From Centroscyllium fabricii (Eukaryota), in contig JBNRSN020000006.1 in the NCBI GenBank assembly GCA_051313645.2, forward strand, positions 223,262,001 to 223,326,000: DNA of 64,000 bases, given 5' to 3'. The notes beneath the pieces are model-generated. The model was given only the letters and a program-made list of their open reading frames with translations, was not told where the DNA came from and ran no database searches. A program made the translations under genes and the position numbers. Shown piece by piece: positions 1-48,379 of the stretch; position 1 is the first letter of the stretch, and every line of letters begins with the position of its first letter.

Positions 1-3000
1 AGTCTCCCTTGCTTCACAGTCCCACACAGCGGACGTCACCGGCTACTGCTCCGTCACGCTCACAGTTAGGGACTGCGTGTACCGTAAATTTAAATTGTAC
101 ATACTCAAGCAGTTGTGCGCCCCAGTCTTACTGGGACTGGATTTCCAGTGCCACCTTAAGAGCGTGACAATGGAGTTCGGCGGGACCCTGGCCCCCCTCA
201 CCGTCAGTAGCCGGGACAATCCATTCCTAAAGCGGAGCCCGACTTGCGGCCTCTCCACCCTGAAAGTCAACCCCCCCTCGCTGTTCGCCAACCTCGACCC
301 CAACTGCAAGCCCATTGCTACTAAGAGTCGGCGTTACAGTGCAGGGGATCGGACATTTATCAGGTCGGAGGTCGGGCGTATGCTGAAGGAGGGGATAATT
401 GAAGCCAGCACCAGCCCCTGGCAGGCCCAGGTCGTAGTGGTTAAGACTGGCGAGAAACAGCGGATGGTGATCGACTACAGCCAGACCATTAACCGCTACA
501 CCGGGCTCGACGCCTACCCACTTCCCCGCATCTCGGAAATGGTTAACCAGATCGCCCAGTACAAGGTGTTCTCCACAATCGACCTTAAGTCGGCGTATCA
601 CCAACTCCCGATCCGGAAAGCCGACCGCCCGTACACCGCCTTCGAGGCGAACGGTCGGCCCTACCACTTCCTCCGGGTCCCCTTCGGCATGACCAACGCA
701 GTGTCGGTATTCCAGAGGGAGATGGACAGCATGATTGACCAGAACGGGTTGCAGGCCACTTTCCCCTACCTGGACAACGTGACCATCTGCGGCCATGACC
801 AGCAAGACCACGATGCCAACCTGGCCAAATTTCTCCACACGGCGAAACGGCTTGATCTCACGTACAATAAAGATATGTGCGTCTTTAGTACAGATCGGCT
901 CGCCATCCTCGGATACGTGGTGGAAAACGAGGTCCTCGGCCCCGACCCACAGCGTATGCGCCCCTTACAGGAACTGCCCCTTCCTCACAACCCCAAAGCC
1001 CTGAAGAGATGTCTGGGATTTTTCTCTTATTACGCGCAATGGGTTCCCCAGTTCGCGGATAAGGCCAGACCACTCCTCAAGGCTGCCATCTTCCCCCTCT
1101 CGGTAGAAGCCCAAACGGCATTCGGCCGGATCAAGGAAGATATTATCAAGGCGACCATGCACGCCGTTGATGAATCCATCCCTTTCCAGGTGGAGAGTGA
1201 CGCTTCGGACTTTGCCCTTGCCGCCACCCTGAATCAGGCAGGCAGGCCCGTAGCGTTTTTCTCCCGCACCCTACAGGGACCCGAAATTCGCCACTCGGCA
1301 GTGGAAAAGGAGGCCCAGGCCATCGTGGAGGCCGTGCGCTACTGGCGTCATTACCTGGCCAGTAAGCGTTTTACCCTGCTCACCGACCAACGGTCGGTCG
1401 TGTTTATGTTTAATAATAAACAAAAGGGTAAAATCAAGAATGATAAGAATCTGCGGTGGCGGATCGAGCTCTCGACTTACGAGTACGACATTCTTTACCG
1501 ACCAGGCAAACTCAATGAACCCCCGGACGCACTGTCCAGGGGAACGTGCGCCAGTGCCCAGCTAGACCGGCTGAAGGAACTCCACGATCACCTCTGCCAC
1601 CCGGGTATCACCAGACTCGCCCACTTCGTTAAATCCCGTAGCCTCCCCTACTCCATCACGGAGATCAAGGCTATGACCCGAGAGTGCCCTGTTTGCGCCG
1701 AGTGCAAACCCCAATTTTACAGGCCAGACACGGCGCACCTCATTAAGGCCACCCGCCCCTTTGAACGTCTAAGCGTGGACTTCAAAGGCCCCCTCCCCTC
1801 CACCGACCGCAACTCATACTTCCTCACGGTCATAGACGAGTTCTCCCGCTTCCCCTTCGCCTTCCCCTGCCCAGATATGATGAGCGCAACGGTGATCAAA
1901 CACTTCACCACGCTGTTCGCCATTTTCGGTCTCCCCAGCTGCATCCATAGCAACCGGGGGTCGTCGTTAATGAGCGACGAACTGCGTCAGTTTCTGCTTC
2001 AGAAAGGGGTTGCCTCAAGCAGAACGACCAGTTACAACCCCCGGGGGAACGGCCAGGTAGAAAGGGAGAACGGGATCATCTGGAAGGCGGTCAGCCTGGC
2101 CCTGAAGTCTAGAGGCCTTCCAGTGTCCCGTTGGCAGGCAGTCCTCCCAGATGCGCTGCACTCGATCCGCTCTCTGTTGTGCACGGCTACCAACGCCACA
2201 CCTCACGAATTGCTCTTTTCCTTCCCCAGGAAGTCGACTTCGGGGACGGCCCTTCCACCATGGCTCACGATGCCGGGGCCGGTCTTGCTTAGGAAGCATG
2301 TTTGTGGACATAAGACCGACCCCCTGGTAGACAAGGTGCAGCTGCTGCACGCCAACCCACAGTACGCGTACGTGCAGTTCCCGGACGGGTGCGAGGACAC
2401 CGTCTCCATCAGGGACCTAGCGCCCGCCGGGAGCACCACAGCAGAGCCCCTGGTCGAGCCTCAGCCCGTCCAGCCACTACATTTCGACCACTGGCCGATA
2501 TACCACCCACAACCCACCAGAGGCTGGCCGTTACACACATACACACCGGAGCCCCCGTCACTACCAGCTGAGGACCAAGAACCCGACGACGCGCCGCAGG
2601 CACAGCAGCAACCGGAGGGCCCGGCCCCACCGCCACTACCAGCACCTACAGTACCGGCACCAGCGCCGCCGACACTACCGGCACCAGCGCCGCCGACACT
2701 AGCGACACCAGCGCCGCCGACACTGCAGGCACCAGCGCCGCTGACAGAGACCCGGTGGTCCTCAAGACAGACGCGACCGCCGGAGAAACTCATTATGAAC
2801 TACTCCGTCCATTCACCCCGCCGGACTTAATTTTCAAAGAAGGGGTGAATGTGGTAACCGTTATATATACTCTTTTACCACCATAATATTGCTGCCCAAT
2901 ATTAACCTGTATGTATAGCGGCCGGGTGCATGATACACTGCTTTGTATTGCGACACTGTCGCGGGGTCAGGTCAGCCATACCTCTAACTCCTCCCCTCAG

Positions 3001-3149
3001 GTGAGTGCCTTATAGGTGGGGTCTGACCTGCCCGCATCCATTCTGTACCTGATGTTCGATCGGAGCGTAGCTCCTTTGTAAGCTAATAAAAGCCTTTAGT
3101 TAAGGTAACTACGCGTCTTTGGTTTTATTAGACTATTGACGATACGTCA
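1..3149 (+). mobile_element. Gypsy element A (Mag-like lineage), 3' part; 5' end lies upstream of the window
   Basis: Open pol frame 2-2830 (PR C-terminus, RT, RH, IN), PPT AAAGAAGGGGTGAA, and 3' LTR 2850-3149 (TGTGG...CGTCA). Closely related to element D. Confidence 0.95.
2..2830 (+). CDS. Pol polyprotein of element A (5'-partial)
   Basis: RT motifs IDLKSAYHQ and YLDN, RNase H ESDASD, integrase HHCC and SVDFKG. The second integrase catalytic Asp reads HSNRG where siblings have HSDRG. C-terminal 24-bp PAPAPPTL repeats. Confidence 0.9.
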   Translation, partial: VSLASQSHTADVTGYCSVTLTVRDCVYRKFKLYILKQLCAPVLLGLDFQCHLKSVTMEFGGTLAPLTVSSRDNPFLKRSPTCGLSTLKVNPPSLFANLDPNCKPIATKSRRYSAGDRTFIRSEVGRMLKEGIIEASTSPWQAQVVVVKTGEKQRMVIDYSQTINRYTGLDAYPLPRISEMVNQIAQYKVFSTIDLKSAYHQLPIRKADRPYTAFEANGRPYHFLRVPFGMTNAVSVFQREMDSMIDQNGLQATFPYLDNVTICGHDQQDHDANLAKFLHTAKRLDLTYNKDMCVFSTDRLAILGYVVENEVLGPDPQRMRPLQELPLPHNPKALKRCLGFFSYYAQWVPQFADKARPLLKAAIFPLSVEAQTAFGRIKEDIIKATMHAVDESIPFQVESDASDFALAATLNQAGRPVAFFSRTLQGPEIRHSAVEKEAQAIVEAVRYWRHYLASKRFTLLTDQRSVVFMFNNKQKGKIKNDKNLRWRIELSTYEYDILYRPGKLNEPPDALSRGTCASAQLDRLKELHDHLCHPGITRLAHFVKSRSLPYSITEIKAMTRECPVCAECKPQFYRPDTAHLIKATRPFERLSVDFKGPLPSTDRNSYFLTVIDEFSRFPFAFPCPDMMSATVIKHFTTLFAIFGLPSCIHSNRGSSLMSDELRQFLLQKGVASSRTTSYNPRGNGQVERENGIIWKAVSLALKSRGLPVSRWQAVLPDALHSIRSLLCTATNATPHELLFSFPRKSTSGTALPPWLTMPGPVLLRKHVCGHKTDPLVDKVQLLHANPQYAYVQFPDGCEDTVSIRDLAPAGSTTAEPLVEPQPVQPLHFDHWPIYHPQPTRGWPLHTYTPEPPSLPAEDQEPDDAPQAQQQPEGPAPPPLPAPTVPAPAPPTLPAPAPPTLATPAPPTLQAPAPLTETRWSSRQTRPPEKLIMNYSVHSPRRT

Positions 3150-8044: not shown

Positions 8045-11000
8045 TGTGGCGGCACGCCCACTGAGACATCGAATCCGCCACAGGAACTCCGCGGAGCAAA
8101 GCCCCGCTCATCCGGGTGACGCGACGACGTCACCATGTCGGCCGATGCGATGACGTCACCAACCGCGGGACTGTTTAAATACGCTTGTTGGGAGTGGTTC
8201 ACTCTCTTTCTTGTTTTGTTTAGTATATTAAAGCTGTGTTTTCTCTAGCTCTGGCTCACGTGTGGTTCCTAGGCCCTGCCGGCGCTACAGTGGTGACCCC
8301 GAACTGGAACGACTTCCAGAGAAGAAAAGCTGCCGCAGGATCTGGGACCACCAGCCAAAGAACTTTTTAAATAAGAAAACATGGTAAACCCAAGGAACCA
8401 AGCTCCACAAACGCAAAGACTTGGCCAGAACGCCGGACGTGGACTAACTCTACCCGAGTTCTGGGAGCTACGGCCAGCGGCCTGGTTTATCTGCATCGAG
8501 ACCAGCTGCCGCACACATGGCATCCAGGGGGACAACCGCTATGACCTGGTGTTCTCAGCCCTACCACAGACGACGATCGATCGGATGTGGTCAAAAATAC
8601 AGCGTGTGCCCACCGCAGGCAGGTATGAATCACTCAAGGCCGCGCTTATAATTTTTTTTACCCCCTCTCAATTTGAGCGCGACTGCCAGCTCCTCGACCT
8701 CCCCGAACTCAGGGACGCAGACCCATCGGACCTCTTAGGTCAGATGCAAGCGCTCACACCCAACCAGGCCTCCCTCTTCTGCACCGTCTTCCTCCTTAAA
8801 CTGCCCCGCGCCATCAGACCGGCCTTGGCGGCCCTTGGCCAACGGAGCGATGACGAGCTCGGAGAGGAAGCCGACAGGCTCATGGAGGCGCAGCGCACCC
8901 GCTCAACCACGTGCGACCCTAACTCGGCATCGGTAGAGCGCAGCCAATCACCCCCCAGGCATAACTTTACGCCTGAACCTAGGACCCCGCGCCCACCTAG
9001 GCAAACGCGTCCCGCTAGCACCGGCTGGTGCTACTACCACACACGGTTCGATCATAAAGCGCACCGCTGCGTCCAGCCATGCGCGTTCAAGCCACGGCCC
9101 AACTCAGCCCCCACCATGTCTGTAGGCCACACAGGAGCACTGCTCTTTGCCACAGACAGCGGCAGAGGCCTCAGGTTCCTCTGCGACACAGGCGCGCAGC
9201 ACAGCATCGTGCCAGCCTCCCCTGCAGAAACCAAACAAGGCACCCGGGGCCCGCCACTAGCGGCGGCCAACGGCTCCAGTATAAAAACGTACGGCACCCG
9301 CAAGCTTACAATTACCCTTGCAAGCCACGCGTACACCTGGGATTTTGTAACAGCCCAGGTCACATCGCCCCTCCTCGGGGCAGATTTCCTCTGCGCCTAC
9401 GGCCTACTGGTCGACGTAACCCGGCGCCGCTTGGTCAACATAAATAATATGACGACCATCCCATGCTCCACAGGGCCCGCACTCCTGGCCCACGCGGCAG
9501 CCCAATGCCGCTCTCGGGACTCCGATGCCTACGGCACACTCCTGGCAGAGTTCCCCGCCCTAACCAACCCCACGTTCACCGCCCGCCAGGCCAAACACGG
9601 GGTGGAGCATTTTATAACGACCACAGGCCCTCCCGTCCATGCCCACGCCCGTAGGCTCGACCCGGCCAAGCAGGAGATAGCGCGCACCGAGTTCCGCACC
9701 ATGGAACAACTCGGTATAATCCGCCGCTCCAGCAGCCCCTGGGCCTCTCCGCTCCACATAGCCCCCAAGCCCGACGGAGGTTGGCGCCCCTGCGGCGACT
9801 ACCGCCGCCTAAACAACGCCACCACCCCGGATAGGTACCCCGTACCCCACATCCAGGATTTTTCCGCCAGATTAGCGGGCTGTACGATCTTTTCCAAGAT
9901 CGACCTGGTGCGTGGCTACCACCAGGTGCCGGTACACCCGGCGGACATTCCTAAAACGGCCGTTATTACCCCCTTCGGGCTCTTCGAGTTCCTTAGGATG
10001 CCCTTCGGCCTTAAAAACGCGGCCCAGGCCTTCCAGCGCCTCATGGACTCAGTCCTACAGGACTTGAAGTTCATTTTCGTCTATTTAGACGACATCCTCG
10101 TGGCCAGCACCTCCCCCCAGGAACACCTCCTGCACCTCAGGAGCCTGTTCCAGCGCCTTACCGAACACGGCCTTATCTTAAGCCCCACCAAGTGCAAATT
10201 CGGCCTCGAGACTATTGACTTCCTCGGCCACGGCATTTCCCAAACAGGGGCCATACCCCTGCCCTCCAAGGTGCAGGCGGTACAGGAATTACCCCGCCCG
10301 CACTCCATTAAAGGGCTGCAGGAATTCTTAGGCATGGTTAATTTTTATAACCGCTTTATCCCGGGAGCAGCCGCTCTCATGGCCCCCTTATACCAGGCCA
10401 CCCGCGGGCAGTCCAACAAGGCTGCGGTCGAGTGGACGGCCGACGCCGCCACCGCCTTCACCGCAACTAAAACCGCCCTGGCAAACGCCACCCTCCTAGC
10501 CCACCCTAGGCCCAACGCCAGAGTAGCCCTCACCACCGACGCCTCCGACTATGCGGTCGGGGCCGTATTTGAGCAGTGGACCGGCAACTCGTGGCAGCCC
10601 CTGGCCTTTTTCAGCCGGCAACTCAGGCCCCCAGAGGTTAAATACAGCGCCTTCGATAGGGAGCTACTCGCTCTCCATCTGGCAGTGCGACACTTTCGTT
10701 TCTTCTTGGAGGGCCGCCACTTCACAGCCTTCAGCGACCATAAGCCACTCACGTTTGCGATGGCTAAGGTTGCCGAACCCTGGTCGGCCAGGCAGCAGCG
10801 CCAACTCGCGGCCGTGTCGGAATTTACAACCGACATCCAGCACATTTCCGGCCGCGACAACGTGGTCGCTGACTGCCTCTCACGCCCCACCATTAACGCC
10901 GCCCAAATGGCGGTCGATTACGCCCAGCTGGCCGCGGACCAGCTGGCCGACCCCGACCTGCTCAACGCAGCAGCTAATCTCCCCGGCCTCCACTTGGCCA

Positions 11001-12495
11001 ATATCGCGCACGGCCCCGCGGCCACCGTCGTCTGCTGCGACGTATCCTTGCCGCAACCCAGGCCAGTCGTACCCCACGCTTGGAGGCGACACATATTTAG
11101 GACCCTCCATGACCTGTCCCACCCCGGCGCCCGCGCGTCCATCAAATTAATCTCGGCCCGATTCGTATGGCGTGGCCTGCGCAAGGACGTCCGCGCCTGG
11201 GCCAGCTCCTGCATAGCCTGCCAGCGCTCCAAAGTACATAAGCACATCAGGGCACCGCTGGAAACTTTTAAAGTGCCGGCCAGACGCTTTGACCACGTCC
11301 ATATCGATCTCGTCGGGCCACTACCGCCATCCCGGGGCCACACGCACCTAATGACCATGGTCGACCGCAACACTCGCTGGCCAGAAGCAGTCCCCCTCAC
11401 TGCCACCGGCACCACGGACTTGGCCAGGGCGTTCATCGCCACCTGGGTCGCCCGCTTCGGCGTGCCCACAGACATCACCTCCGACAGAGGACCCCAGTTT
11501 ACGTCGGCATTATGGGCGGCCATCGCCCGCGACCTTGGGGTGACACTACATCGAACCACTGCATACCACCCACAGGCGAACGGCCTATGCGAACGGTTCC
11601 ACCGCTCAATGAAGGCATCACTACGAGCCACACTAAAGGACGCATCGTGGACCGACCGCCTTCCATGGGTTCTCCTCGGGCTGCGCTCGGCAGTCAAGGA
11701 AGACCTAAACGCCTCGGCAGCAGAGCTCGTCTACGGCCAAACTTTAACGGTGCCGGGTGAGTTCCTGGCTGAGCCCAACGCTCCCTGGTCAGCCGACCAG
11801 TATTTAAAAGACTTCGCCAACCCGGCACGAGCTTTCCAGCCACTACCAGTGGCCCGGCACGGAGAGCCGGCAGCTCGGGTGCCGGACGACATTAAAAAAG
11901 CTAAATTTGTGTTCGTCCGGCGCGACGGACACCGATCTCCACTACAGCCACCGTACGATGGCCCCTACAGAGTGCTTCGGGCGGGAGCTAAAGCTTTTGA
12001 ATTACAAATGGGCAACAGGACTGACACTGTGACAATAGACCGGCTCAAGCCGGCGCACGTTATAGCGGGTGAGACAACGGTCCCCGCACAACCACCACAA
12101 CGCGGTCGCCCTCCCGCAACAAAACCCGCCCACACTCCACCGCAGAACCAGGAGCAACAGACACCATGGTCCGGCCGCATCATCCGGCCACCCCAACGGC
12201 ACACATAGACTCTGTCACTATTCCTCCCGGACGGATTCTGGGGGGAGCTGTGTGGCGGCACACCCACTGAGACATCGAATCCGCCACGGGAACTCCACGG
12301 AGCAAAGCCCCGCTCATCCGGGTGACGCGACGATGTCACCACGTCGGCCGACGCGTTGACGTCACCAACCGCGGGACTGTTTAAATACGCTTGTTGCGAG
12401 TGGTTCACTCTCTTTCTTGTTTTGTTTAGTATATTAAAGCTGTGTTTTCTCTAGCTCTGGCTCACGTGTGGTTCCTAGGCCCTGCCGGCGCTACA
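8045..12495 (+). mobile_element. Gypsy element B, CsRN1-like lineage, full length
   Basis: 245-bp LTRs at 8045-8289 and 12251-12495, 4-bp TSD AGGT, tRNA-Trp-type PBS TGGTGACCCCGA (8291-8302), PPT GGGGGGAG, and a single intact ORF. Confidence 0.96.
8381..12208 (+). CDS. Gag-Pol polyprotein of element B (1275 aa, uninterrupted)
   Basis: CHCC gag knuckle (CYYH...RCVQPC), PR DTGA, RT YLDD, RH TDAS, IN HHCC plus D-D35-E, and a GPY motif. Confidence 0.95.
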
Positions 12496-19402: not shown

Positions 19403-22400
19403 TGTGACCGAAATAACGACCTTGTGGACGAGTAGTTAAGAGGGTAAACAATTCGGCTTTTATTCACTAAAGGTGGACATGCACCAGCTAGTCGACCGTC
19501 CCCAGTAATGGCAGGGGGATGGGAGACGGCCGCTTATGTACCTGGCCCCGGGAGGGAGGAGTCGCAGGCGGAGCCAGCATGGGCATGTCCAGGTAATCGT
19601 ATACAATGAACTATGATACAACGTGGTGAATAGTACGATTACAACAATACATATATATACAAGACAGAGTGGATAGATATACATAGAAGAGTGGTTTACC
19701 ACATTCACCCCTTCTTTAAAACGAAAGTCCGGCGGGGTGAATGCGACAGTTCTTTCAATTTATAGGTTTAGTCTCTCAGGCGGCCTGGTAAGCCTGGTGG
19801 AACGGCGCACCGCTGGTGGTGTCGGCGGACGTGAAGTAGCCGGTTGTGTTGATCGCACCACTGGTGATGATATCAGTGGGCGTACGATAGCCGGTTGGGT
19901 TGGTTGTTTCCTCGTCGGTGCCCTTGCGGTGACAGTTGGCGGCGCGCTCTCCCCCTCGTCGTCTGACTCTAGAGGCCGTGCACTATGGAACCATGCTGGA
20001 GGCCATGCCGTGCTGCCTACAGGTGCCGGGCGGACGTACTGAGGTGCCTGATTCTCGTGCCGAGGAGCGTACCTTGGCGCCGGTGGCCCGGGAGGAGTGG
20101 ATGGCAGGCGCGGGGGCGCGGGCTGCTAGGCGGGGCTGGTTTTGGGGGCCCCCGCTGGTGCCAGGTCCTTGATGGACACGGTGTCCTCCCTCCCGTCGGG
20201 GTACGCCACGTAGGCGTACTGGGGATTGGCGTGCAGGAGGTGGACCCGTTCGACCAGGGGGTCTGCCTTGTGGCCCCTCACGTGCTTCCGGAGTAGGACT
20301 GGTCCCGGGGATAATAGCCACGATGGCAGCGAGGTCCCGGAAGCCGACTTCCTGGGGAAGGCAAAAAGTCGCTCGTGAGGGGTGGCATTAGTGGCCGTAC
20401 AAAGGAGTGACCGGATGGAGTGGAGCGCTTCGGGGAGGATGTCCTGCCAGCGGGAGACTGGGAGGCCTTTAGACCGTAGGGCTAACAGGATGGCCTTCCA
20501 GACAGTGGCGTTCTCCCTCGCTACCTGTCCGTTCCCCCGGGGGTTGTAGCTGGTAGTCCTGCTAGTCGCGATGCCTTTAGCTAGCAGGAACTGATGCAGC
20601 TCGTCACTCATGAAGGAGGCCCCCCGGTCGCTATGGATATAGCTGGGGTAGCCGAACAGGGAGAAAATGCTGTGGAGGGCCTTGATGACAGTGGCAGAGG
20701 TCATGTCCGGGCAGGGGATGGCGAAAGGGAAGCGCGAGTACTCGTCGATGACGTTAAGGAAGTACACGTTCCTGTTGGCCGAGGGAAGGGGCCCTTTAAA
20801 ATCGACGCTGAGTCGTTCAAAGGGGCGGGTGGCCTTGATCAGATGCGCCCGGTCTGGCCGAAAGAAGTGCGGCTTGCACTCCGCACAGACCTGGCAGTTG
20901 CTGGTCATGGTCTTGACCTCCTCGATGGAGTAGGGGAGGTTGCGGGACTTCACAAAGTGAACCAACCTGGTGACCCCCGGGTGGCAGAGGTCGTTGTGCA
21001 GGGTTTGGAGACGGTCTACTTGTGCGCTGGCACAGGTACCGCGGGATAGGGCGTCTGGTGGTTCGTTGAATTTCCCGGGCCGGTACAAGATCTCATAATT
21101 GAACGCTGAGAGCTCAATTCTCCACCTTAATATCTTGTCGTTCTTGATTTTACCCCGCTCTTTGTTGTTGAACATAAAAGCGACTGAGCGTTGGTCAGTC
21201 AGCAGGGTAAATCGTTTGCCGGCCAGGTAGTGCTTCCAGTGACGCACTGCTTCAACAATGGCCTGGGCCTCCTTCTCGACTGAAGAGTGACGGGTCTCGG
21301 GGCCCTGGAGGGTGCGCGAGAAGAATGCCACTGGTCTGCCCGCCTGGTTAAGGGTGGCGGCCAGGGCAAAGTCCGATGCATCGCTCTCGACCTGGAACGG
21401 GACAGACTCGTCCACAGCGTGCATCGTTGCCTTTGCAATGTCGTCCTTAATGCCGCAGAACGCCGCGCAGGCATCTGCTGACAGGGGGAATGAGGTTGAT
21501 TTAAGTAGTGGGCGAGCTTTGTCCGCATAATTGGGGACCCACTGGGCATAATAGGCGACGAACCCCAAGCATCTTTTGAGGGCCTTGAGGGAGTGGGGGA
21601 GGGGGAGCTCCAGGAGGGGGCGCATGCGGTCCGGGTCAGGACCGATGACCCCATTCTCCACAACACTGCCGAGGATGGCGAGGCGGGTGGTCCTGAACAC
21701 ACATTTCTCAGTGTTATAGGTCAGGTTGAGTGTTTTGGCGGTGTGGAGAAATTTCTGGAGGTTGGCGTCGTGGTCCTGCTGATCGTGGCCGCAGATGGTC
21801 ACGTTATCAAGATACGGGAAAGTGGCTCGCAGCCCGTACTGATCGACCATTCGGTCCATCTCCCTTTGGAAGACCGAGACCCCATTCGTAACGCCAAACG
21901 GAACCCTGAGGAAGTGATAGAGGCGGCCGTCAGCCTCGAAGGCCATATAGAGACGGTCCTCTGGGCAAATGGGGAGCTGGTGATACGCGGACTTCAGATC
22001 GATGGCCGAGAAGACCCGAAACTGCGCGATCTGATTTACCATGTCCGCTATCCGGGAAAGGGGGTACGCGTCCAACTGGGTGAACCGGTTAATGGTCTGG
22101 CTATAGTCCACTACCATCCGGTTCTTAGCTCCGGTCTTCACCACCACTACCTGCGCCCTCCAGGGGCTGTTACTGGCCTCGATAACCCCCTCCCCCAGGA
22201 GGCGCTTCACCTCGGACTTGATGAAGTCCATGTCCCCGGTACTGTAGCGCCTACTTTTGGTGGCGACGGGCTTGCAGTCCGGGGTGAGGTTAGCAAAGAG
22301 CGAGGGAGGGGCGACCTTAAGGGTCGAGAGGCCACAGGTAGCGCGCTGTGGATGCTGCAAGGAGCGCCGGTTTCAGACCGTGAGCGGGGGAAGGGGCCCA

Positions 22401-24039
22401 CCGTACGCCATGGTAACGCTTTGGAGGTGGCACTGGAAGTCCAGGCCTAATAATAATGGAGCGCAGAGCTGCGGCAGCACGAAGAATTTAAAATTATTAA
22501 AGTGCACGCCCCGTACCGTTAGAGCCACCGCGCAACGTCCGGAGACGTCCGCGGATTCTGATTTTGATGCCATGGATATCTTTTGGCTCGCTGGCATAAC
22601 CTTAAGGGAGAGGCGCCTTACTGTTTCTGGGTGGACAAAACTCACCGTGCTCCCGCTGTCGAAGAGGCACTCAACGTCTTGTCCGTTCACCTCCACCGTC
22701 ATCATTGACTTCCCAAGTGGTTGTGTCTTGTTTTGGTCCAGGGTGACTGAAGCTAGTACCAGATCGGTCGAGTCATCTTGATCCGTACAGTAGTCGTCTG
22801 CGGCCTGGTCCCAAGATGGCTGCCGCCATGTGGTGTACTGCGGAGGGGGTGGCTGAGACCAAAATGGCGTCTGCTGCCACACGGTGGGCTGTGTTGAGGA
22901 TGGCAGTGTCCGAGATGGCTGCCCCCACGTCCCACACGCGGCGCTGCCCGGTTTCGGTTGCGGTGCTGCAGTTGCTCTGCAGACTTTGGCATAGTGTCCC
23001 TTTCTGCCGCATTTCGAGCAGGCCGCATCTCTTGCCGGGCAGCTCCGTCTCGGATGCTGAGACTGCCCGCAGAAGTAGCATTTGGCCGTCTTAGAGCGAG
23101 CGGCTGCAGTCATTTCTTCCGCCGGCCTTGGCGCCGGCGATGTCCAATTTGTTGGGGCTGGGCCCGCGTAGTTTCCCGGGTATGAGGATAAATTCAGTGA
23201 TGCCGCATCCAGCGCGTTGCCCAGGTCTGCTGTTGCCTGCAGGTCAAGGCCGTTCTGCTCTAACAGCCTTTGTCTGATATAGTCTGACCTGAGGCCCGTC
23301 ACGTACGCGTCCCTGATCAGGCTGTCCACATGGACCTGGGCCGTTTGCGCTTTGCAGTCACAGGCCCGGGATATTAGTCTCAGCGCGCGTAGGAATTCCA
23401 CGCTGGACTCACCGGGTTGCTGTTTTCTGGTAGCCAATAGGTGTCTGGCGTGGACGATGTTGGGTGCCCGGTTGTACTCCGCTTTGAGGATCTTGATTGC
23501 ATCCAAGTACGATGATGCGTGTACGATCATGGAGTCTACCTGAGGGCCCACCCGGGCGTTGAGGAGCCGCCGTTTGTCTTCTTCGGTCCTGACGACCGTT
23601 GCGTTCGCCTTGATGAACGCATCGAAGCAGTCATACCAGTGCGAAAAGGTATTTGATGCGCCTGGTGTCCGGGGGTCCAGCTCGAACGTTGCTGGTTTGA
23701 GCATTGCGTCCATCGTCAAATTTAGTGAATAAAATTGTGACCGAAATAACGACCTCGTGGACGAGTAGTTAAGAGGGTAAAACAATTCGGCTTTTATTCA
23801 CTAAAGGTGGACATGCACCAGCTAGTCGACCGTCCCCAGTAATGGCAGGGGGATGGGAGACGGCCGCTTATGTACCTGGCCCCGGGAGGGAGGAGTCGCA
23901 GGCGGAGCCAGCATGGGCATGTCCAGGTAATCGTATACAATGAACTATGATACAACATGGTGAATAGTACGATTACAACAATACATATATATATACAAGA
24001 CAGAGTGGATAGATATACATAGAAGAGTGGTTTACCACA
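19403..24039 (-). mobile_element. Gypsy element C (Mag-like), full length, inserted in a CR1 tail
   Basis: LTRs at 23736-24039 and 19403-19703 with four differences, and 5-bp TSD AAGAC. The flanks rejoin as a CR1 3' fragment. Confidence 0.96.
19760..23713 (-). pseudogene. Gag-Pol of element C, one frame with two in-frame stops
   Basis: ATG at 23713, two CCHC knuckles, PR DSGS, RT YLDN and IN. TGA at 22373-22375 and TAG at 20126-20128 are in frame with the final RPPERLNL* at 19760. Confidence 0.85.
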
Positions 24040-27995: not shown

Positions 27996-30900
27996 TGACG
28001 TATCGTCAATGAATCAAAGACGAGTAGTTACCTCAACTAAAGGCTTTTATTCGCTTTACAAAGGAGCTACGCTCTGGTCGATCATCGAGTACAGAATGAA
28101 TGGGGGCAAGTCAGACCCCACCTATAAGGCACTCACCTGAGGGGAGGAGTTAGAGGTGTGGCTGACCTGACCCCGTGACAGTGTCGTAATACAAAAACTA
28201 TGTATAATGCACCCAGCCGCTATACATGCTGGTTTATAGTGTGCTTAACTATTACAGTGGTAATAACGGTTACCACATTCACCCCTTCTTTGAAAATTAA
28301 GTCCGGCAGGGTGAATGGACAGAACAGTTCATAATAAGTCTCTCCGGCGGTCGCGTCTGCCTTGAGGACCGCCGGGTTTCTGTTAGCGGCGCTGGTGCCG
28401 GTAGTGTCGGCGGCGCTGGTGCCGGTAGTGTCGGCGGGGCCGGGTCCTCCGGCTGCTGCTGTGCCTGTGGTGTGGCGTCCGGTTCTTGGTCCTCGGCTGG
28501 TAGTGGCGGGGGCTCCGGTGTGTGTGTGTGTGCATAGGCCAAAATCCGGTGGGTTGTGGTTGGTGTGTAGGCCAGTGGTCGGTAGGTAGTGGCTGGTCGG
28601 GCTGAGGCTCGACCAGGTGCTCTGCTGTGGTGCTCCCAGTGGGCGCTAGGTCCCTGATGGAAACTGTGTCCTCGCGCCCGTCCGGGAACTGCACGTATGC
28701 GTACTGCGGGTTGGCGTGCAGCAGCTGCACCCTCTCCACCAGGGGGTCGGTCTTATGGCCACGGACATGTTTTCTAAGTAAGACCGGCCCCGGCATCGTG
28801 AGCCATGGTGGGAGTGCTGTCCCCGAAGTCGACTTCCTGGGGAAGGAAAAGAGCAATTCGTGAGGTGTGGCGTTGGTAGCCGTACACAGCAGAGAGCGGA
28901 TGGAGTGCAGCGCGTCTGGGAGGACTGCCTGCCAACGGGACACTGGAAGGCCTCTGGACTTCAGGGCCAGGCTGACCGCCTTCCAGATGATCCCGTTCTC
29001 CCTTTCTACCTGGCCGTTCCCCCGGGGGTTGTAACTGGTCGTTCTACTTGAGGCAACCCCTTTCTGAAGCAGAAACTGACACAGTTCGTCACTCATGAAC
29101 GACGACCCCCGGTCGCTATGGATGTAGCTGGGGAGACCGAAAATGGCGCACAGCGTGGTGAAGTGTTTGATCACCGTTGCGCTCGTCATATCGAAGGCGA
29201 AGGGGAAGCGGGAGAACTCGTCTACAACGATGAGGAAGTACGAGTTGCGGTCAGTGGAGGGGAGGGGGCCTTTGAAAGGATGTACTTGCCCTGGAGGCAG
29301 TGCAGAGAAGGTTTACACGGTTAATTCCAGCGATGAGGGGATTGACATATGAGGAAAGGTTAAGTAGGTTGGGACTCTACTCTTTAGAGTTCAGAAGAAT
29401 GAGAGGCGATCTTATTGAAACGTATAAGATCGTGAGGGGCCTTGATCGGGTGGATGCGCCAAGGATGTTTCCAATGATCGGGGAGACTAGAACTAGGGGG
29501 CATAGTCTTAGAATAAGGGGGGGCTCTTTTAAAACTGAGATGAGGAGAAACTTCTTTACCCAGAGGGTGGTTAATCTATGGAATTCACTGCCTCAGGGAG
29601 CTGTGGAAGCGGGAACATTAAATAAATTTAAAACCGAAATAGACTGTTTTTTAGCAGACAAGGGAATTAGGGGTTACGGGGAGCGGGCAGGGAAGTGGAC
29701 CTGAGTTATGGTTAGTATAGTAAGACCTGAGTGATCTCCTGGACAAGTTTCGATCGCCTGGATTGGGGTCGGAGAGGAATTTCCCGGATTTTTTTCCCAA
29801 ATTGGACCTGGGTTTTTATCCAGTTTTTCGCCTCTCCCAGGAGATCACACGGTTCTTTGGGTGGGAGAAGGATGATAGTGGTATGAAGGTTAGGGTAGGA
29901 TCAGCAATGATCTTGATGGGTGAGGGGGAGGGCTCGGGGGGCCGATTGGCCTACTCCTGCTCCTATTTCATGGGTTCTTGTGTTCTTGTGTTCTTATGTT
30001 CAGCCATGAACGTATTGAATGGCGGTGCAGGCTCGACGGACCGAATGGTCTACTCCTGCACCTATTTTCTATGTTTCTATGTTTCCACGCTTAGACGTTC
30101 AAAAGGGCGGGTGGCCTTAATGAGGTGCGCCGTGTCTGGCCTGTAAAATTGGGGTTTGCACTCGGCACAAACAGGGCACTCTCGGGTCATAGCCTTGATC
30201 TCCGTGATGGAGTAGGGGAGGCTACGGGATTTAATGAAATGGGCAAGTCTAGTGACACCCGGGTGGCAGAGGCGATCGTGGAGTTCCTTCAGCCGGTCTA
30301 GCTGGGCACTGGCGCACGTTCCCCTGGACAGTGCGTCCGGGGGTTCATTGGGTTTGCCTGGTCGGTAAAGAATGTCGTACTCGTAAGTCGAGAGCTCGAT
30401 CTGCCACCGCAGGATCTTTTCATTCTTGAATTTACCCTTTGGTTATTGTTAAACATAAACGCGACCGACCATTGGTCGGTGAGCAGGGTAAAACGCTTAC
30501 CGGCCAGGTAATGACGCCAGTAGCGCACGGCCTCCACGATGGCCTGGGCCTCCTTTTCCACTGCAGAGTGGCGAGTTTCGGGTCCCTGTAGGGTGCGGGA
30601 GAAAAACGCTACGGGCCTGCCCGCCTGGTTCAGGGTGGCGGCAAGGGCAAAGTCCAAAGCGTCACTCTCCACCTGGAAAGGGATGGACTCATCAACGGCG
30701 TGCATGGTCGCCTTAATAATATCTTCCTTGATCCGGGCGAACGGCGTGTGGGCTTCTACCGAGTGGGGGAAGACGGCAGCCTTGAGGAGCGATCTGGCCT
30801 TATCCGCAAACTGGGGAACCATTGCGCGTAATAGGAGAAAAATCCCAGACATCTCTTCAGGGCCTTGGGGTTGTGAGGTAGGGGCAGTTCCTGTAAGGGA

Positions 30901-33583
30901 CGCATACGCTGTGGGTCGGGGCCAAGGACCCCGTTTTCCACTACATATCCGAGGATGGCGAGCCGATCTGTACTAAAGACGCACTTGTCTTTATTGTACG
31001 TGAGATCGAGCCATTTCGCCGTGTGGAGAAATTTGGCCAGGTTGGCATCGTGGTCCTGCTGATCATGGCCGCAGATGGTCACGTTGTCCAGGTAGGGGAA
31101 AGTGGCCTGCAACCCGTTCTGGTCAACCATACGGTCCATCTCCCTCTGGAATACCGACACTCCGTTGGTCACGCCGAAGGGGACCCGGAGGAAGTGGTAG
31201 AGCCGACCGTTCGCCTCGAAGGCGGTGTACGGGCGGTCAGCTTTCCGGATCGGGAGTTGGTGATACGCCGACTTAAGGTCGATTGTGGAGAACACCTTGT
31301 ACTGGGCGATCTGGTTAACCATTTCCGAGATGCGGGGAAGGGGGTAGGCATCGAGCCCGGTGTAGCGGTTAATGGTCTGGCTGTAGTCGATCACCATCAG
31401 CAGTTTCTCGCCAGTCTTAACCACTACGACCTGGGCCCGCCAGGGGCTGGTGCTGGCTTCAATTATCCCCTCCTGCAGCATACGCCCGACCTCTGACCTG
31501 ATAAATATCCGATCCCCTGCACTGTAATGCCGACTCTTAGTAGCAATGGGTTTGCAGTTTGGGTCGAGGTTGGCGAACAGCGAGGGGGGGTCGACTTTCA
31601 GGGTGGAAAGGCCGCAAGTCGGGCTCCGCTTTAGGAAGGGATTGTCCCGGCTACTGACGGTGAGGGGGGACAGGGTCCCGCCGAACTCCATTGTCACGCT
31701 CTTCAGGTGGCACTGGAAATCCAGTCCCAGTAAGACTGGGGCGCACAACTGCTGGAGTATGTACAATTTAAAATTACGGTACACGCAGTCCCTGACTGTG
31801 AGCGTGACGGAGCAGTAGACGGTGACGTCCGCCGTGTGGGACTTTGAAGCAAGGGAGATTTGGTAGTGCGTGGGCAGGATCTGCAGTCCGTAGCGCCGCA
31901 CTGTGTCGGGGTGAATGAAGCTCTCTGTGCTTCCGGTGTCGAACAGGCAGTTGGTGGTATGGCCGTTGACTTTAATCCCCATCATGGAATTTGATAGGGT
32001 GTGCGGCCTAGCCTGGTCGACCGTGGCTGAGGCCGAAGTGTGTGTGTGTGTGTGGGAGCCCTCCGCTAGCCGGGGCCATGCACAAGATGGCGGCGCCCGT
32101 GATTCGCACATGGCCGACCGCGGTGGACAAGATGGCGGCGCCGGGGAGTCGCACATGGCTGGCCGCTGAGGACAAGATGGCGGCGCCCGTGATTCGCACG
32201 TGGCGGGCCACTGTGGACGCGGTGGCAGTGCCCGTGGTTCGCACGCAGCGGGCCGCGGTGGCTGGGTTGGCGGCGCCCGTGATTCGCATGCAGCGGGCCG
32301 CGCTGGGCGAGATGCCGGCTTAGGGGGTCGCACATGGCCGGCCGTGGCCGAGTTTGGCGTGCCGTGTGCGCGGCCGGCCTCTGCCGTATCAGGGTGGGAG
32401 ACGGAGGCGCTTGTACTCTACACCCGGACCGTTGCTGGGTCGCGCTGCAACTGCAGCTTACCTGAGGCCAAGGGCCAGCGTTGGAGCTCTTGCAGGCCGC
32501 GCTGTTGTGTCTGGAGTTGGGCGCTGGGGCCGATTTGCAGGCCCTGGCGTAATGTCCCTTTTTCCTACATTTCTCGCAGGTCGCGGTTCTCGCGGGGCAT
32601 TTCACTCGCGGGTGTAGTCCCTGGCCGCAGAAATAACATTTTTTATCCTCCGACGTCTTCGCAGTTGCCGCTGCCGTTGTGGGGGTCTCGACCCGTCGTG
32701 GGGCCGCCCAGGAGTCGAAGGTGGCTTGTGGGCTTTGGCCGCTATACGCCTCTAGTCTGTGATGTGCTCCATCCACTGCGTTGGAGATGGAGATCGCCTC
32801 TTCCAGCGATAGTGTCTCTTTCTCCAGCAGCCGCTGGCGGGCCTGGGCGGACCTGATCCCCGTCACGTAGGCGTCCCGGACAAGGAGATTCGCCTCCTCC
32901 TGCGCCGTCCGTGCCTTGCAGTCACAGGCCCGGGCGAGGGAGGGCTTGGAGTGCCAACAGGTACTGTTCATTGGACTCACCAATTAGTTGTTGTCTGGTC
33001 GCCAGCACGTGTCTGGCGTAGACCGAGTGGACCGGGCGCACATAGCATGCCTTCAGTTTCTCCACGGCTTCTTTGTACGTTTTAGCGTCGCGGATGAAGG
33101 AATATACCCGGCTGGAGATCCTAGATGTGAGAACGTGGAGTTTGTTCCCGTCGGTTGTCGCCTTGGCGGCCTCTATGTAGGCCTCGACGAGGCTGAACCA
33201 ATGTTCAAATGCATTGGCGGCGGCTGGGTCCTGTGGACTGATGTCCAGCTTTTCGGGTTTCACAGCGCCGCTCTCCATTTTAATTTTAAAGCGAATAAAA
33301 TTGACGTATCGTCAATGAATCAAAGACGAGTAGTTACCTTAACTATAGGCTTTTATTCGCTTTACAAAGGAGCTACGCTCCGGTCGAACATCGAGTACAG
33401 AATGAATGGGGGCAGGTCAGACCCCACCTATAAGGCACTCACCTGAGGGGAGGAGTTAGAGGTGTGGCTGACCTGACCCCGCGAAAGTGTCGTAATACAA
33501 AAACTATGTACAATGCACCCAGCCGCTATACATGCTGGTTTATAGTGTGCTTAACTATTACAGTGGTAATAACGGTTACCACA
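27996..33583 (-). mobile_element. Gypsy element D (same family as A), full length, frameshifted, with a nested CR1
   Basis: 282-bp LTRs at 33302-33583 and 27996-28277. Flanks GGGGG/GGGGA within a purine-rich tract. gag ATG at 33278. ORF pieces 32922-33278, 32066-32983, 30756-32333, 30298-30852 and 28383-29189. Confidence 0.95.
29277..30083 (+). mobile_element. CR1 3' fragment inserted in the integrase of element D, with two tandem 3' tails
   Basis: QRRFTRLIP...GYGERAGKWT* followed by a 3' UTR. It splits the integrase SVDFKG codons; no TSD. Confidence 0.92.
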
Positions 33584-34208: not shown

Positions 34209-34385
34209 TGGTTTAGAAATTCATCTTCAGTAGTAGCGCAAAATGGGTGGTATTGCCCCGGTCGCTCGTTATACACCCGCTCGATATTCAGTTCCATTGA
34301 CTTTACTATCAGGCGGGGTGTGTAACAGCCATTCGATGGGATAACCCCAAATTTTGCGCTACTTCATAAGATGAATTTCTACCCT
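34209..34385. mobile_element. Short palindromic MITE
   Basis: TAGAAATTCATCTT...AAGATGAATTTCTA and GTAGCGCAAAAT...ATTTTGCGCTAC inverted arms. Confidence 0.7.
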
Positions 34386-43434: not shown

Positions 43435-46400
43435 TGTTTATGGTCTACATTAATGATTTGGATGTGAATGTAAAAGGTATGATCAGTAAGTTTGCAGATG
43501 ACACGAAAATTGGTGGGGTGGTAAATAGCGAGGAGGGAAGCCTCAGTCTGCAGGACAATGTAGATTGGTTGGTCAGATGGGTGGAACAGTGGCAAATGGA
43601 ATTTAACCCTGAAAAGTGTGAGGTGATGCATTTTGGAAGGACTAACAAGGCAAGGGAATACACAATGAATGGTAAGCCCCTAGGAAAGACAGAGGGTCAG
43701 AGGGACCTTGGTGTGCATGTACATAGATCCCTGAAGGCAACAGAACAGGTGGATAAGGTGGTTAAAAAGGCATATGGGATACTTGCCTTCATTAGTCGAG
43801 GCATAAGAGCAGGGAGGTTATGATGGAGCTGTACAAAATGCTGGTAAGGCCACAGCTGGAATATTGTGTGCAGTTCTGGTCACCACATTATAGGAAGGAT
43901 GTAATTGCTTTGGAGAGTGCAGAGGAGATTCACCAGGATGTTACCTGGGCTGGAGCACTTCAGCTATGAAGAAAGACTGGATAGGCTGGGGTTGTTTTCC
44001 TTGGAGCAGAGAAGGCTGAGGGGGGACTGAGATACCTCAATTACGACTGAAGCGAGTTTCTTAATAAAGAGGCTTTTATTAACAAAGAACTAACCGTATC
44101 CCCGATGAGTCCGCCTAGTACAAAAGACAAGTGGGCGGAGCGTACTCCTTTATACTAGCACCCAGAGGCGGGGTCAGCCGGGACAGGTCACCACAGAAAG
44201 ATAAAGGCATTAACAGATATATAACAAGAAATATACAAACACATTAAATCGAACTATATACAATAACACACCAAAAGGTTCATCACATTCACCCCTTCCT
44301 TAAAAACAAGTCCCGTGGGGTGAATATCAGCACTGTGTTATAAGTCTCTGTGGAGGTTTAATAGTCTGAACAGATCAGCGAGGCAGTGTCGGTTCTGGCG
44401 AAGAAGCGGGAGTAGCTGTAATCGGAGAAGACGCTGACGGGGCTCCCGACGTGAACAGAGACTCCACTGGTGGAAGAGGTACCTCAGGCACGAGAAGAGC
44501 TGGTGGAGGTGTAGCAGCCCCTGGAAGAGCAGGCTGAACAAAGCGATGAGCTCCGTCGTGCATCGGAAGTGACGAGGGCCCCGATGTGGTGTGTGCAGGT
44601 GAATGAAAAGATGGCCCCTGTTGTGAAACTGTGACCTGGGAGGGCAAGGGCTCCGCCAACGACTCAGTGTGAACGTCTCCAGTGGGCGCAAGGTCTCTAA
44701 CCGAGACGGTATCCTCACGCCCGTCTGGGTATGCCACGTAGGCATACTGAGGGTTGGCATGCAGAAGGCGCACACGTTCGACAAGAGGGTCCGTTTTGTG
44801 GCCACGGACATGTCTTCTAAGCAAAACCAGCCCCGGGTTGGTCAGCCTTGTCGGCAGGGACGTTCCCAAAGTCGATTTCCTGGGGAAAGAGAAGAGTTTC
44901 CACGATTGCTTGGGCCTCCTTTTCCACTGAAGAGAGGCGGACTTCAGGGCCCTGCAGGGTACGGGAGAAGAAAGCGACAGGCCTGCCTGCCTGGTTAAGG
45001 GTGGCGGCCAGGGCGAAGTCGGAGGCGTCGCTTTCGACCTGGAAGGGGAGAGACTCATCAATGGCATGCATGGTAGCCTTGATGATGTCTTGCTTGATGT
45101 GAGAAAAAGCAATTTGGGCCTCTAACGGGAGTGGGAAGGAAGTAGCCCTGAGGAGAGGCCAGGCCTTATCAGCATAATGGGAACCCATTGTGCATAATAA
45201 GAGAAAAACCCCAGGCATCTCCTCAAAGCTTTGGGGGAGTGTGGTAGGGGCAGCTCCTGAAGGGGGCGCATATGTCGGGATCGGGGCCGAGGACCCCATT
45301 CTCAACCACGTAGCCGAGGATAGCCAACCGGTTAGTGCTGAAAACACATTTATCCTCATTGTAAGTGAGGTTCAGACGCTGGGCCGTATGGAGAAACCTG
45401 TCCAAATTGGCATCATGATCTTGCTGGTCATAGCCGTAGATCGTGACATTGTCCAAATACGGGAATGTGGCCTGCAAATCATACTGGTCAACCATTCGGT
45501 CTATCTCTCGTTGGAAAACCGAAACTCCGTAGGTAACCCCAAAGGGGACCCGGAGGAAATAAAAAAGGCGCCCATTTGTCTCGAAGGCAGTGTATTTACG
45601 GTCCTCAGCTCTGATGGGGAGCTGGTGATAGGCCGACTTAAGGTCGATGGTGGAGAAGACCTTATACTGGCCGATCTGATTGACCATGTCATTGATTCTA
45701 GGAAGCGGATAAGCGTCGAGGCCACTGTAGCGGTTAATAGTCTGGCTATAGTCGATGACCATGCGCTGTTTGTCACCAGACTTAACCACCACCACCTGGG
45801 CCCGCCACGGGCTGTTACTGGCCTCAATGATGCCCTCCCGCAACAACCGAGCAACCTCTGCCTTGATGAAGGTCCGGTCCCCCGCTCTGTATCGCCGACT
45901 CTTGGTTGCAATGGGCTTGCAGTCAGGGTCAAGGTTGGTGAACAGCGAGGCGGGGTCGATCTTCAAGGTAGACAGACCGCAAGAGGAGTGTGGTTGTGAG
46001 GCAGGGCAGTCGCGGCTGCTGACCGTGAGAGGAGGCAGGGGACCGCCGTACGCCATCGTCACGCTCTGCAGGTTGCACTGGAAGTCCAGGCCAAGCAACA
46101 CAGGGGCGCAGAGCTGTGGGAGGACGTACAGTTGTAAGTCGCGGTATGTCGACCCCTTCACGGTAATGGTGACTATACAGCAGCCAATGACATCCGCAGT
46201 CTGGGACTTGGAGGCGAGGGAGATTTTACGATGTGTGGGCCTAACCCTGGGGGAATAACGGTGCACCGTATCAGGGTGTATGAAGCTCTCCGTACTCCCA
46301 GTGTCGAACAGATATTGGGTGAGGTGCCCCTCCACCCGGATGGGCATCATCGATGACATGAGAGGATGAGGTAGAGACAGGTTGAGAGCCGTAGAGGCAA

Positions 46401-48379
46401 GTGTGGTGTGCGCGCTGGGGCCCTTGTGCCATGCAGGGTCCGGCGTTGTCAGGTCTGCGAAAGATGGCATGATTCACACGCGGCGGGCAGCGGTGGCGTT
46501 TTGGGCCGTTGGGAGGACCGCTGGGTGGGTCACCAAAGGGCTCGTGGCGCACAAGCGCCAGAATGCTGAATTGCCCCGGAGTTGCCTGTTGCTGCTGCCA
46601 GGATCGGTAGAGTTGCTCCTGAGCTGCCTGTTGCTGCTGCTGCCAGGATTGGTAGAGTTGACTGGATCAAAGATAGCGGCACCCTGGGCTGGGACTGGGC
46701 CACTGCTGCCAGGATCCGAGTTGACTGGATCAAACATGGCGGCGCCCTGGGCTGGGACTGGGCCGCTGCTGCCAGGATCCGAGGAGTTGACTGGATCAAA
46801 GATGGCGGCGCCCTTGGCTCCGCCCCTGGTTCAGACGGTGCCGGCGCTGCCAGGATCAAAGATGGCGCCCGCGTTTCGCACCAAACCGCCGATGGAGAAG
46901 ATGCCCGTGCCTCCAAAGATGGTGGAGCGCGGGAAACGACTGAGGAAGAAGGCGCCCGCGCCCCCAAAGATGGCGGAGCATGGGAAACGACGATGGTGGG
47001 CCACCGCTGAGTTGGGTGGGTGGCGATTGTTGCGAGGGCTGCTGTAGCGATGTCTGCGATTTCGGCGAGTTCTGCGAGGGCCGCGATTTCTGCGAGGGTT
47101 GCTGTCGGGGCGCGCTAGGTACCTGAGGCCACTCTGTGGCGTGGCCATCGCAGGCCACTGCCGTTTTCCGGGCTGATTCCGGGCCGATCGGCAGACCTTT
47201 ACAAAATGGCCCTTGTTGCCACATCTGGAGCATGAAGACGCCTTCGCTGGGCAGGAGCTTCGTGGATGGTGTTTCTGTACGCAAAAGAAGCATTTTGGAG
47301 GCGCTGGCAGGCTAGATGGCGTCGTGGCCACAACGGTCGCTGTCGAGGGCGTCGAACTCGAGTCCCAAGGCCCAGGGGAAACCGCATGGGAGCCGCGCCC
47401 CGTGTACGAATCTAGGCTCCGGAGGGCCCCATCCGCCGCGTTAGAAAGTTTCACCGCCTCATTAAGGGATAAGTTATCCTGCTCGAGCAGGCGGGTGCGG
47501 GCTGGGGCCAATCTGATGCCCGCCACGTAGGCATCGCGGACGAGGAGGTCCATGTGTTCCTGGGTGTTAACAGGGGTGCATCCGCAGCACAGAACAAGAG
47601 CTTGAAGAGCCTCCAGGTACTCCTCATTCGACTCACCATGCTGTTGCCGCCGCGTGGCGAGGAGATGGTGAGCATAGACTGCGTTGACTGGCTGGAGATA
47701 TCGAGCCTTCAGCAGCTCCATCGCTGCATCGTATTCCATGGTGTTCTTAATTAGGGAATACACCCTGCCACTCACGCAGGAGACCAGGACTCTTCTCTTG
47801 TGCGCATCGCTGACTCCGGCCACGACAAGGTACGACTCGAAACAGCTTAGCCAGTGTTCAAAATCATTTGATGCGTTCGGTGCCTGGGGGTTGAGGTCGA
47901 GAGGTTTCGGTTTCAGAATGATCTCCCACCTCTCCAATGCTGCTGGCTGCTGATTTTCATTCTGCAAGGCGCCCTGCTGCTGTTGGCTCATTTTAAAATT
48001 TTTGTTAATAAAATTGAGATACCTCAGTTACGACTGAAGCGAGTTTCTTAATAAAGAGGCTTTTATTAACAAAGAACTGAACCGTATCCCCGATGAGTCC
48101 GCCTAGTACAAAAGACAAGTGGGTGGAGCGTACTCCTTTATACTAGCACCCAGAGGCGGGGTCAGCCGGGACAGGTCCCCACAGAAAGATAAAGGCATTA
48201 ACAGATATATAACAAGATATATACAAACACATTAAACAGAACTATATACAATGACAGTACAGTGTGAATCACACCAAACAGTTCATCACAGGGACCTGAT
48301 TGAGGTGTACAAAATTATGAGGGGCATAGATAGGATAGATAGAAAGGAACTTTTTCCCTTAGTAGAGGGGTCAATAACT
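43435..48379 (+). mobile_element. CR1 LINE fragment split by Gypsy E (43435-44027 and 48291-48379)
   Basis: YINDLDVNVKGMISKFADDTKIGG. The frame resumes after E as DLIEVYKIMRGIDR. Confidence 0.9.
44028..48290 (-). mobile_element. Gypsy element E (Mag-like), internally deleted and frameshifted
   Basis: LTRs at 48015-48290 and 44028-44287, TSD GGGAC, gag ATG at 47991, RT YLDN. RNase H EAQAIVE is fused to the post-core integrase FSFPRKS at about 44898, a deletion of about 1 kb. Confidence 0.95.

Follow-up and report, generated by a model that had tools for sequence, protein, structure and literature searches.

Ty3/Gypsy retrotransposons of Centroscyllium fabricii that probably multiplied with asparagine in place of the third catalytic aspartate of reverse transcriptase

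Elements in the window

The window, the whole stretch of DNA analysed, is 64,000 nucleotides of the Centroscyllium fabricii genome (assembly GCA_051313645.2, contig JBNRSN020000006.1, positions 223,262,001 to 223,326,000). It carries six members of one lineage of LTR retrotransposons, A, C, D, E, G and F, the last without the region of reverse transcriptase (RT) motif C, and one element of another type, B (Table 1). The lineage elements are 4-5 kb long with LTRs of 215-304 bp, TG..CA ends, a polypurine tract and 5-bp target site duplications (TSDs).

Table 1. Elements, RT motifs and leader hairpins in the 64-kb window
Feature	Position	Strand	Details
Element A, start	left of window		5' LTR and TSD in locus L031
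Element A, pol frame	2..2830	+	protease end, RT, RNase H, integrase; open throughout
Element A, RT motif C YLDN (FPYLDNVT)	767..778	+	TAC CTG GAC AAC
Element A, polypurine tract	2836..2849	+
Element A, 3' LTR	2850..3149	+	TG..CA; 5-bp TSD; 97.7% identity to its 5' LTR
Element B, CsRN1-type Gypsy	8045..12495	+	YLDD at 10082-10093; tRNA-type primer site; outgroup
Element C, full length	19403..24039	-	~4.64 kb; LTRs ~304 bp, 98.7% identity; 5-bp TSD; gag-pol frame with one stop
Element C, motif YLDN	21803..21814	-	TAT CTT GAT AAC
Element C, leader hairpin	23721..23805	-	arm ~23792-23805 pairs with ~23721-23734, the latter starting 1 nt past LTR end
Element D	27996..33583	-	LTRs 33302-33583 and 27996-28277, 97.2% identity; frameshifts
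Element D, motif YLDN	31083..31094	-	TAC CTG GAC AAC
Element D, leader hairpin	33287..33364	-	14 bp
Element E	44028..48290	-	internal deletion and frameshifts; LTR identity 97.1%; 5-bp TSD
Element E, motif YLDN	45448..45459	-	TAT TTG GAC AAT
Element E, leader hairpin	~48001-48073	-	13 bp
Element F, 5' part only, C-like	48377..50330	-	breaks off before motif C; LTR left end unmapped
Element F, leader hairpin		-	same as in other lineage copies
Element G	59636..63993	+	LTRs 59636-59850 and 63767-63993, 96.3% identity; frameshifted; 5-bp TSD
Element G, leader hairpin	~59781-59865	+	14 bp
Element G, motif YLDN	61804..61815	+	TAC CTG GAC AAT

Pfam gives the domain order in A as RT, RNase H, integrase, with a protease before RT in the homologues P0002 and P0055. 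The order of pol, the Ty3-like RT described below, and the LTRs, polypurine tract and TSDs all fit a Ty3/Gypsy LTR retrotransposon, and we classify the lineage as such. Two features usual in that group are missing from the window lineage, the YxDD motif of RT and a tRNA primer-binding site, the latter being usual and not universal. Judged by a TGG start, no tRNA site of that type follows the LTR in the lineage elements.

With regard to age, the sequence-only reading had the lineage transposing recently, with near-identical LTR pairs and intact TSDs. This stands for the perfect 5-base TSDs of A, C, G and E (E by hand) and for window LTR identities of 96.3-98.7%, but the TSD of D matches at only 4 of 5 bases and no LTR pair examined is identical. 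Among 45 elements examined, LTR pairs were called automatically in 36, of which four are false pairs (73-81%); the 32 real pairs have 95.2-99.3% identity, with three at 99% or above. A perfect 5-bp TSD flanks 22 of the 36 called pairs (the four false ones included in the 36), and E by hand. The expansion thus appears recent in a loose sense only, young enough for clean element ends, and what we claim is past multiplication.

There are several other features of note. The integrase of D carries a LINE-like insertion of ~0.8 kb (29277-30083), and in that of A the second catalytic Asp has become Asn (~1950-1960), a residue that is Asp in 80 of 81 Asn-type relatives, so that we read the change as decay specific to that copy. 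The polypurine tract sits within a hairpin of 8-12 bp (2812-2851 in A, and likewise in C, D, E and G), and a TTCACCCC stretch ~20 nt upstream pairs with the 3' end of the tract in all five copies. Elsewhere there is a minisatellite array with a unit of 28-29 bp (37500-41500), broken by a LINE-type RT fragment (FADD at 38478), a second minisatellite with ~9 copies of a 31-bp unit (26872-27150), LINE-type RT fragments with FADD motifs at 5184, 5630, 6054 and 43491, and an imperfect palindrome of ~170 bp (34214-34381).

Asparagine at the third catalytic position

FPYLDNVT was confirmed in A, C, D, E and G. The five motifs have four codon spellings and use both Asn codons. The best match of the RT is that of Ty3 (4ol8), with E values of 5e-48 by sequence and 1.1e-20 by fold, the fold being that of an AlphaFold model (pLDDT 91) that is free of metal and substrate and was read at the level of the overall fold. 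YLDN aligns residue for residue with the YLDD of Ty3, with Asn at the position of D214 and the motif-A Asp intact. The alignment and the Ty3-like fold thus indicate that Asn replaces the third catalytic aspartate (D214 in Ty3, D211 in Ty1).

Element B had been put forward as the normal YLDD contrast. Its YLDD is indeed present, but its pol is only ~30% identical to that of A, it has a tRNA-type primer site, it falls in the outgroup of our tree, and its motifs are CsRN1-like (by eye, against the supplementary rows of PMC8220671). We therefore treat B as an unrelated lineage, and hence not as a within-lineage control.

Distribution among relatives and clade placement

The closest named proteins are from sharks and rays (75-81% identity). 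The nearest 120 proteins comprise 93 with YxDN, 26 with YxDD and one other, and among named homologues those of corals and a mussel have Asn and those of insects Asp. For a wider view a FastTree phylogeny was built from 246 RTs, with 50%-cluster representatives added and the trait residue masked. An ingroup of 195 RTs from sharks, rays, corals, a mussel and metagenomes has support of 100 and includes 121 with Asn, 71 with Asp and three others; the outgroup of 51 has 50 with Asp and none with Asn. Within the ingroup Asn and Asp sublineages are intermixed, with a minimum of 21 changes on the best tree, a figure that is approximate because many FastTree branches are weak; 9-13 independent Asp/Asn contrasts lie on supported branches. 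The deepest ingroup branches are mostly Asp, and on this topology Asp is probably the ancestral state of the clade, with repeated gains of Asn and reversals. The switch can be seen between close relatives, as sister RT-RNase H pairs with 74-86% identity differ in state.

At DNA level the motif was covered in 87 of 90 metagenome and MAG-contig loci, of which 58 are DN, 25 DD and 4 other, and the 58 DN loci have AAT in 46 cases and AAC in 12. Clade members were found in bacterial MAG contigs (L113-L118), which accounts for some protein records being labelled bacterial; this occurrence is probably host contamination. A search of viral contigs for relatives of the clade found none. Contigs of ~4 kb that overlap at their ends (L040, L050, L062, L113, L114, L116) amount to a single element unit assembled as a circle, which is either a one-LTR circle or a collapsed repeat.

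In the alignments that supplement PMC8220671, the rows for Cigr1 carry, by eye, SPWRAQ, DYSQT(I/V)N, SAYHQ, TAFEA, PFGVTNGV and PDPERLRPL, and also resemble our lineage in a Thr two residues past the motif and in RNase H and integrase stretches. In a comparison of clade columns these signatures set the ingroup apart from all outgroups. We therefore file the lineage under the Cigr-1 clade of Ty3/Gypsy, on the basis of this by-eye match. The rows with W-ATP... and ICGDYK, which we read as Mag-like, lack by eye the SPWRAQ and DYSQTIN of the ingroup, and the Mag-clade placement suggested earlier is replaced by the Cigr-1 one. The Cigr1 row itself reads YLDD, so that Cigr1 is like the window lineage in its RT and RNase H signatures and unlike it at the third aspartate. 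The clade founder is from Ciona intestinalis, and the clade is reported in molluscs (PMC6238403) and annelids (PMC8556966).

Asn as the likely working state

Exact 32-base patterns were counted over the 7.2-Gb C. fabricii genome. There are 210,040 matches for YLDN, about one per 34 kb of genome, and 284 for YLDD, a ratio of about 740 to 1. As controls for decay we used YLDS (439 matches) and YLGN (791), each of which needs a comparable single A-to-G change, and the second of which destroys an essential aspartate. YLDD is rarer than both and thus at or below mutational background, with the caveats that the D variant often creates a CpG and may decay faster, and that an exact pattern could miss a diverged helper. 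If most copies were near full length the YLDN density would mean ~1 Gb of this family, copy lengths and haplotype duplication being unaccounted for in this figure.

The 30 best protein hits of the lineage all have YLDN. Thirty YLDD copies examined are spread over several subfamilies. In a comparison with 50 sampled YLDN copies, 23 of the 30 lie no further, within 1%, from a YLDN copy than from their nearest YLDD copy; for the other seven the nearest copy is another YLDD one, by a margin of over 1% on all 50.

dN/dS between window copies (138 codons, with the stretch from E ending in a few frameshifted codons) is 0.04-0.20 in seven of ten pairs, dS being saturated in the other three, and we take RT to be under purifying selection between subfamilies. 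The carboxylates of RNase H and integrase are intact in nearly all Asn members (105/108, 101/103, 95/97 and 90/91; 86/86, 80/81 and 79/79). Loss of the Asp by decay after insertion is rejected on the 210,040 YLDN matches, the 30 of 30 best protein hits, the 93 of 120 homologues and the low dN/dS. A test of whether Asn arose from Asp through CpG decay gave p 0.03 with all 82 loci and 0.20 with the 43 left after removal of near-copies. The proposal that Asn is an inherited state thus holds up on genome counts, selection and clade-wide occurrence, and the Asn state is real, inherited and very likely functional.

Search for compensating residues

In Ty1 and Ty3 Asn at this position abolishes transposition, so that some compensation should be needed. 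Conservation in the clade is 100% for the first Asp of the motif and 98-100% for the Asp of motif A. The clade differs from the outgroups at many positions in fingers and palm; for example, Gln takes the place of a conserved Pro in SPWRAQ, and DYS has Ser instead of Arg and one inserted residue. Tests were run column by column in RT and in connection/RNase H, and then on independent pairs on the tree. Raw association picked out RNase H Asn411, found in 86% of Asn and 16% of Asp members and of interest because the Ty1 suppressors lie in RNase H, and a Thr two residues after the motif, found in 95% of Asn members, 63% of Asp members and none of the outgroup.

However, in 9-13 independent pairs none of seven candidates switches together with Asn (median p 0.25-1, with low power), nor do any of the RT columns among the rows listed (median p 0.5-1). 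The raw associations of Asn411 and of the RT Thr and Glu positions vanish in these pairs, and sister pairs that differ in state have the same residues at three listed candidates in nearly all cases. The expected compensating change tied to Asn was thus not found among these candidates at this low power, and the simplest reading would be a permissive background common to the whole clade.

The leader hairpin

One base past the CA of the 5' LTR begins a stretch of 13-18 nt whose reverse complement is found in the same LTR, in the region of the poly(A) signal. The complementary arm ends at A(A/T)TAAA(A), with a conserved GCC-like triplet directly after it, and when the leaders of C, D, E and G are folded this pairing forms their closing stem. 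The register is fixed: in every case the 3' end of the arm pairs 1 nt away from the end of the LTR, the position at which a primer has to stop.

At distant loci for which sufficient upstream DNA was available, a hairpin scan against shuffles is passed by 28 of 43 DN and 4 of 9 DD loci, a few of the passes looking like chance and a few of the failures showing a hairpin with a mismatch. In 22 distinct arm pairs, positions outside the AATAAA core are 99% paired, compared with 52% when arms are swapped between families; 13 of these are metagenome and MAG rows pre-selected for pairing, which inflates the 99%, and nine are unselected rows from the own genome. The register suits a primer, as it does in Tf1/Tj1, and the hairpin is likely to serve self-priming at the poly(A) signal, after a putative cut in the RNA.

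Asp members also carry the hairpin, so that Asn is not required for the putative self-priming, and the idea that Asn is tied to the unusual priming is not borne out.

Comparison with known systems

Tf1, Tf2, Tj1 and the Tf1/sushi chromoviruses are like the Cigr-1 clade in having no tRNA site and a primer site complementary to their own LTR. However in the Tf1 type the mRNA supplies the primer from its 5' end, released by RNase H-dependent cleavage, while the arm in the Cigr-1 clade is the poly(A)-signal region, ~60-70 nt after a TATA-like box, and hence probably tens of bases into R and off the transcript 5' end. A chromodomain on the integrase is typical of the Tf1/sushi group. The lineage described here differs, as Pfam found no chromodomain in A, P0002 or P0055.

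Natural YVDN is already on record for nematode BEL/Pao elements (Cer7-Cer12, Atlas virus) in PMC554778 and PMC9094657, so that the near-invariance of YxDD stated earlier for RTs is not supported among LTR retrotransposons. According to the latter these elements are intact with identical LTRs, and in the former their activity is termed undetermined. They have the same Asp-to-Asn state as the Cigr-1-clade copies, but belong to a different superfamily in which Asn is described as a fixed hallmark, whereas in the Cigr-1 clade it toggles among close relatives and its occurrence can be followed through some 210,000 copies. In supplement 4 of PMC8220671 several BEL/Pao rows labelled Dan also read YVDN, and four annelid rows from another Gypsy clade (LLGY63, 64, 108 and 153) read YLDN; we regard these as further independent Asn states.

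With regard to laboratory mutants, Ty3 D214N is reported to be active, of low processivity and lethal in vivo (PMC5371799), and Ty1 D211N keeps polymerase activity, with kpol down 223-fold, and is lethal in vivo, transposition being rescued to 5-10% by RNase H suppressors (PMC2148107). The earlier statement that the Ty1 mutant polymerises with transposition blocked is thus in agreement with that source. The corresponding Asp-to-Asn change is stated in PMC554778 and PMC2148107 to cripple HIV-1 RT. The Ty1 and Ty3 mutants have Asn at the same position as the natural elements and keep polymerase activity, but fail to transpose, whereas the natural Asn lineage has reached its present density in the genome.

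We found no description of Asp/Asn toggling, self-priming or shark expansion of the Cigr-1 clade in the accessible literature, beyond which lie subscription journals, Repbase/GyDB and the original Cigr-1 paper; the priming site may already be noted in either of the last two. The text YLDN is absent from the supplementary files searched for PMC6238403 and PMC8556966.

Interpretation

The reading we favour, and hold with good though not full confidence, is that these are Cigr-1-clade elements with Asn for the third catalytic Asp, and that their RT copied the family without outside help by means of the two aspartates still present. The aspartates essential in Ty3, one in motif A and the other first in YxDD, are conserved in 98-100% of the clade, and the third position is Asn or Asp. 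The metals would be bound by the two kept carboxylates, and the third residue would be an accessory one, involved, by analogy with the Ty1 and Ty3 work, in translocation and pyrophosphate handling. A palm and fingers background present across the clade may make Asp and Asn nearly interchangeable; it would have been gained before the toggling began, and the Thr two residues after the site is a candidate for part of it. Asp and Asn members alike have no tRNA primer site, the stretch after the LTR pairing with the element's own poly(A)-signal region, and a cut in the RNA just 3' of AAUAAA(A) would then give a self-primer in a Tf1-like geometry.

One challenge to autonomy is that YLDN copies are non-autonomous and mobilised in trans, the helpers being either scarce YLDD copies or members of a different Gypsy family. 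YLDD matches do exist, and seven of the copies examined lie closest to other YLDD copies, but YLDD is rarer than either decay control, the copies are scattered over several subfamilies with most having an equally close YLDN copy, and passive passengers would not show the purifying selection seen on RT, RNase H and integrase of Asn members. Mobilisation by YLDD helpers had been named as what would overturn the two-carboxylate reading; with 284 matches against 210,040 it fails, the lineage having multiplied with Asn, and we consider trans mobilisation extremely improbable. Recoding of Asn to Asp, by A-to-I editing of AAY or by deamidation, would give a working enzyme with three aspartates after all. 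Only a single A-to-G change separates AAY from GAY, and hardly any residue other than Asp or Asn is found at the position. However edited genomic RNA would be copied into GAY, yet YLDD is below background, which leaves editing confined to unpackaged mRNA, and Asn followed by Val or Ile deamidates slowly. Recoding is thus very unlikely.

Two other proposals concern what Asn and the hairpin are for. Asn may be adaptive and repeatedly favoured, if a slower or less processive polymerase suits self-priming, because RNase H then has time to cleave and a short strand transfer can take place, or if such a polymerase does less damage to the host. It is consistent with this that in our sample Asn is confined to the putatively self-priming clade (121/195 against 0/51), that partial rescue of Ty1 D211N by RNase H changes links the two activities, and that YLDD revertants have not expanded in this genome. 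On the other hand the same hairpin is found in Asp members, Asp is still present in 71 or more relatives, the founder Cigr1 among them, none of the RNase H residues switches along with it, and YxDN also occurs in BEL/Pao and Mag-like elements, and we give the proposal a small chance. The hairpin for its part may not be a primer at all and serve only to hide the 5' poly(A) signal, with another, unseen primer used. The paired arm does cover the AATAAA/ATTAAA signal, and its place downstream of the TATA-like box puts it probably off the transcript 5' end, but the fixed register 1 nt from the LTR end and the lack of a TGG tRNA site speak for priming, and hiding a signal and priming are compatible roles. 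A role in hiding alone is in our view rather doubtful.

The preferred reading, of autonomous replication with two aspartates, can be extended to a broader account that we offer tentatively, as one that is less likely right than wrong. This would be an old animal lineage with a two-carboxylate RT, in which the RNA is cut just past AAUAAA and a single hairpin thus shuts off the 5' poly(A) site and also provides the primer. The remodelling of RT and RNase H needed for this would have freed the third Asp, so that the Asn enzyme could build something on the order of a tenth of a shark-type genome.

Significance

The role of the third aspartate in RTs has been a question since the Ty1 and Ty3 mutants that polymerise yet cannot transpose. 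Judged by the copy counts, an RT with Asn very likely goes through the entire replication cycle, and natural sister enzymes that are 74-86% identical and differ at this site make the question directly testable. We take the Asn state to be a property of a wide named clade and not of this locus alone, with a precedent in another superfamily. What appears to be new is a Gypsy clade that toggles the third Asp, genome-scale evidence for replication of the Asn form, and likely self-priming at the poly(A) signal, which would give animals a second geometry for priming without a tRNA. Genome annotation that writes off YxDN copies as dead would be mistaken about a family whose motif is matched once in every 34 kb of this genome.
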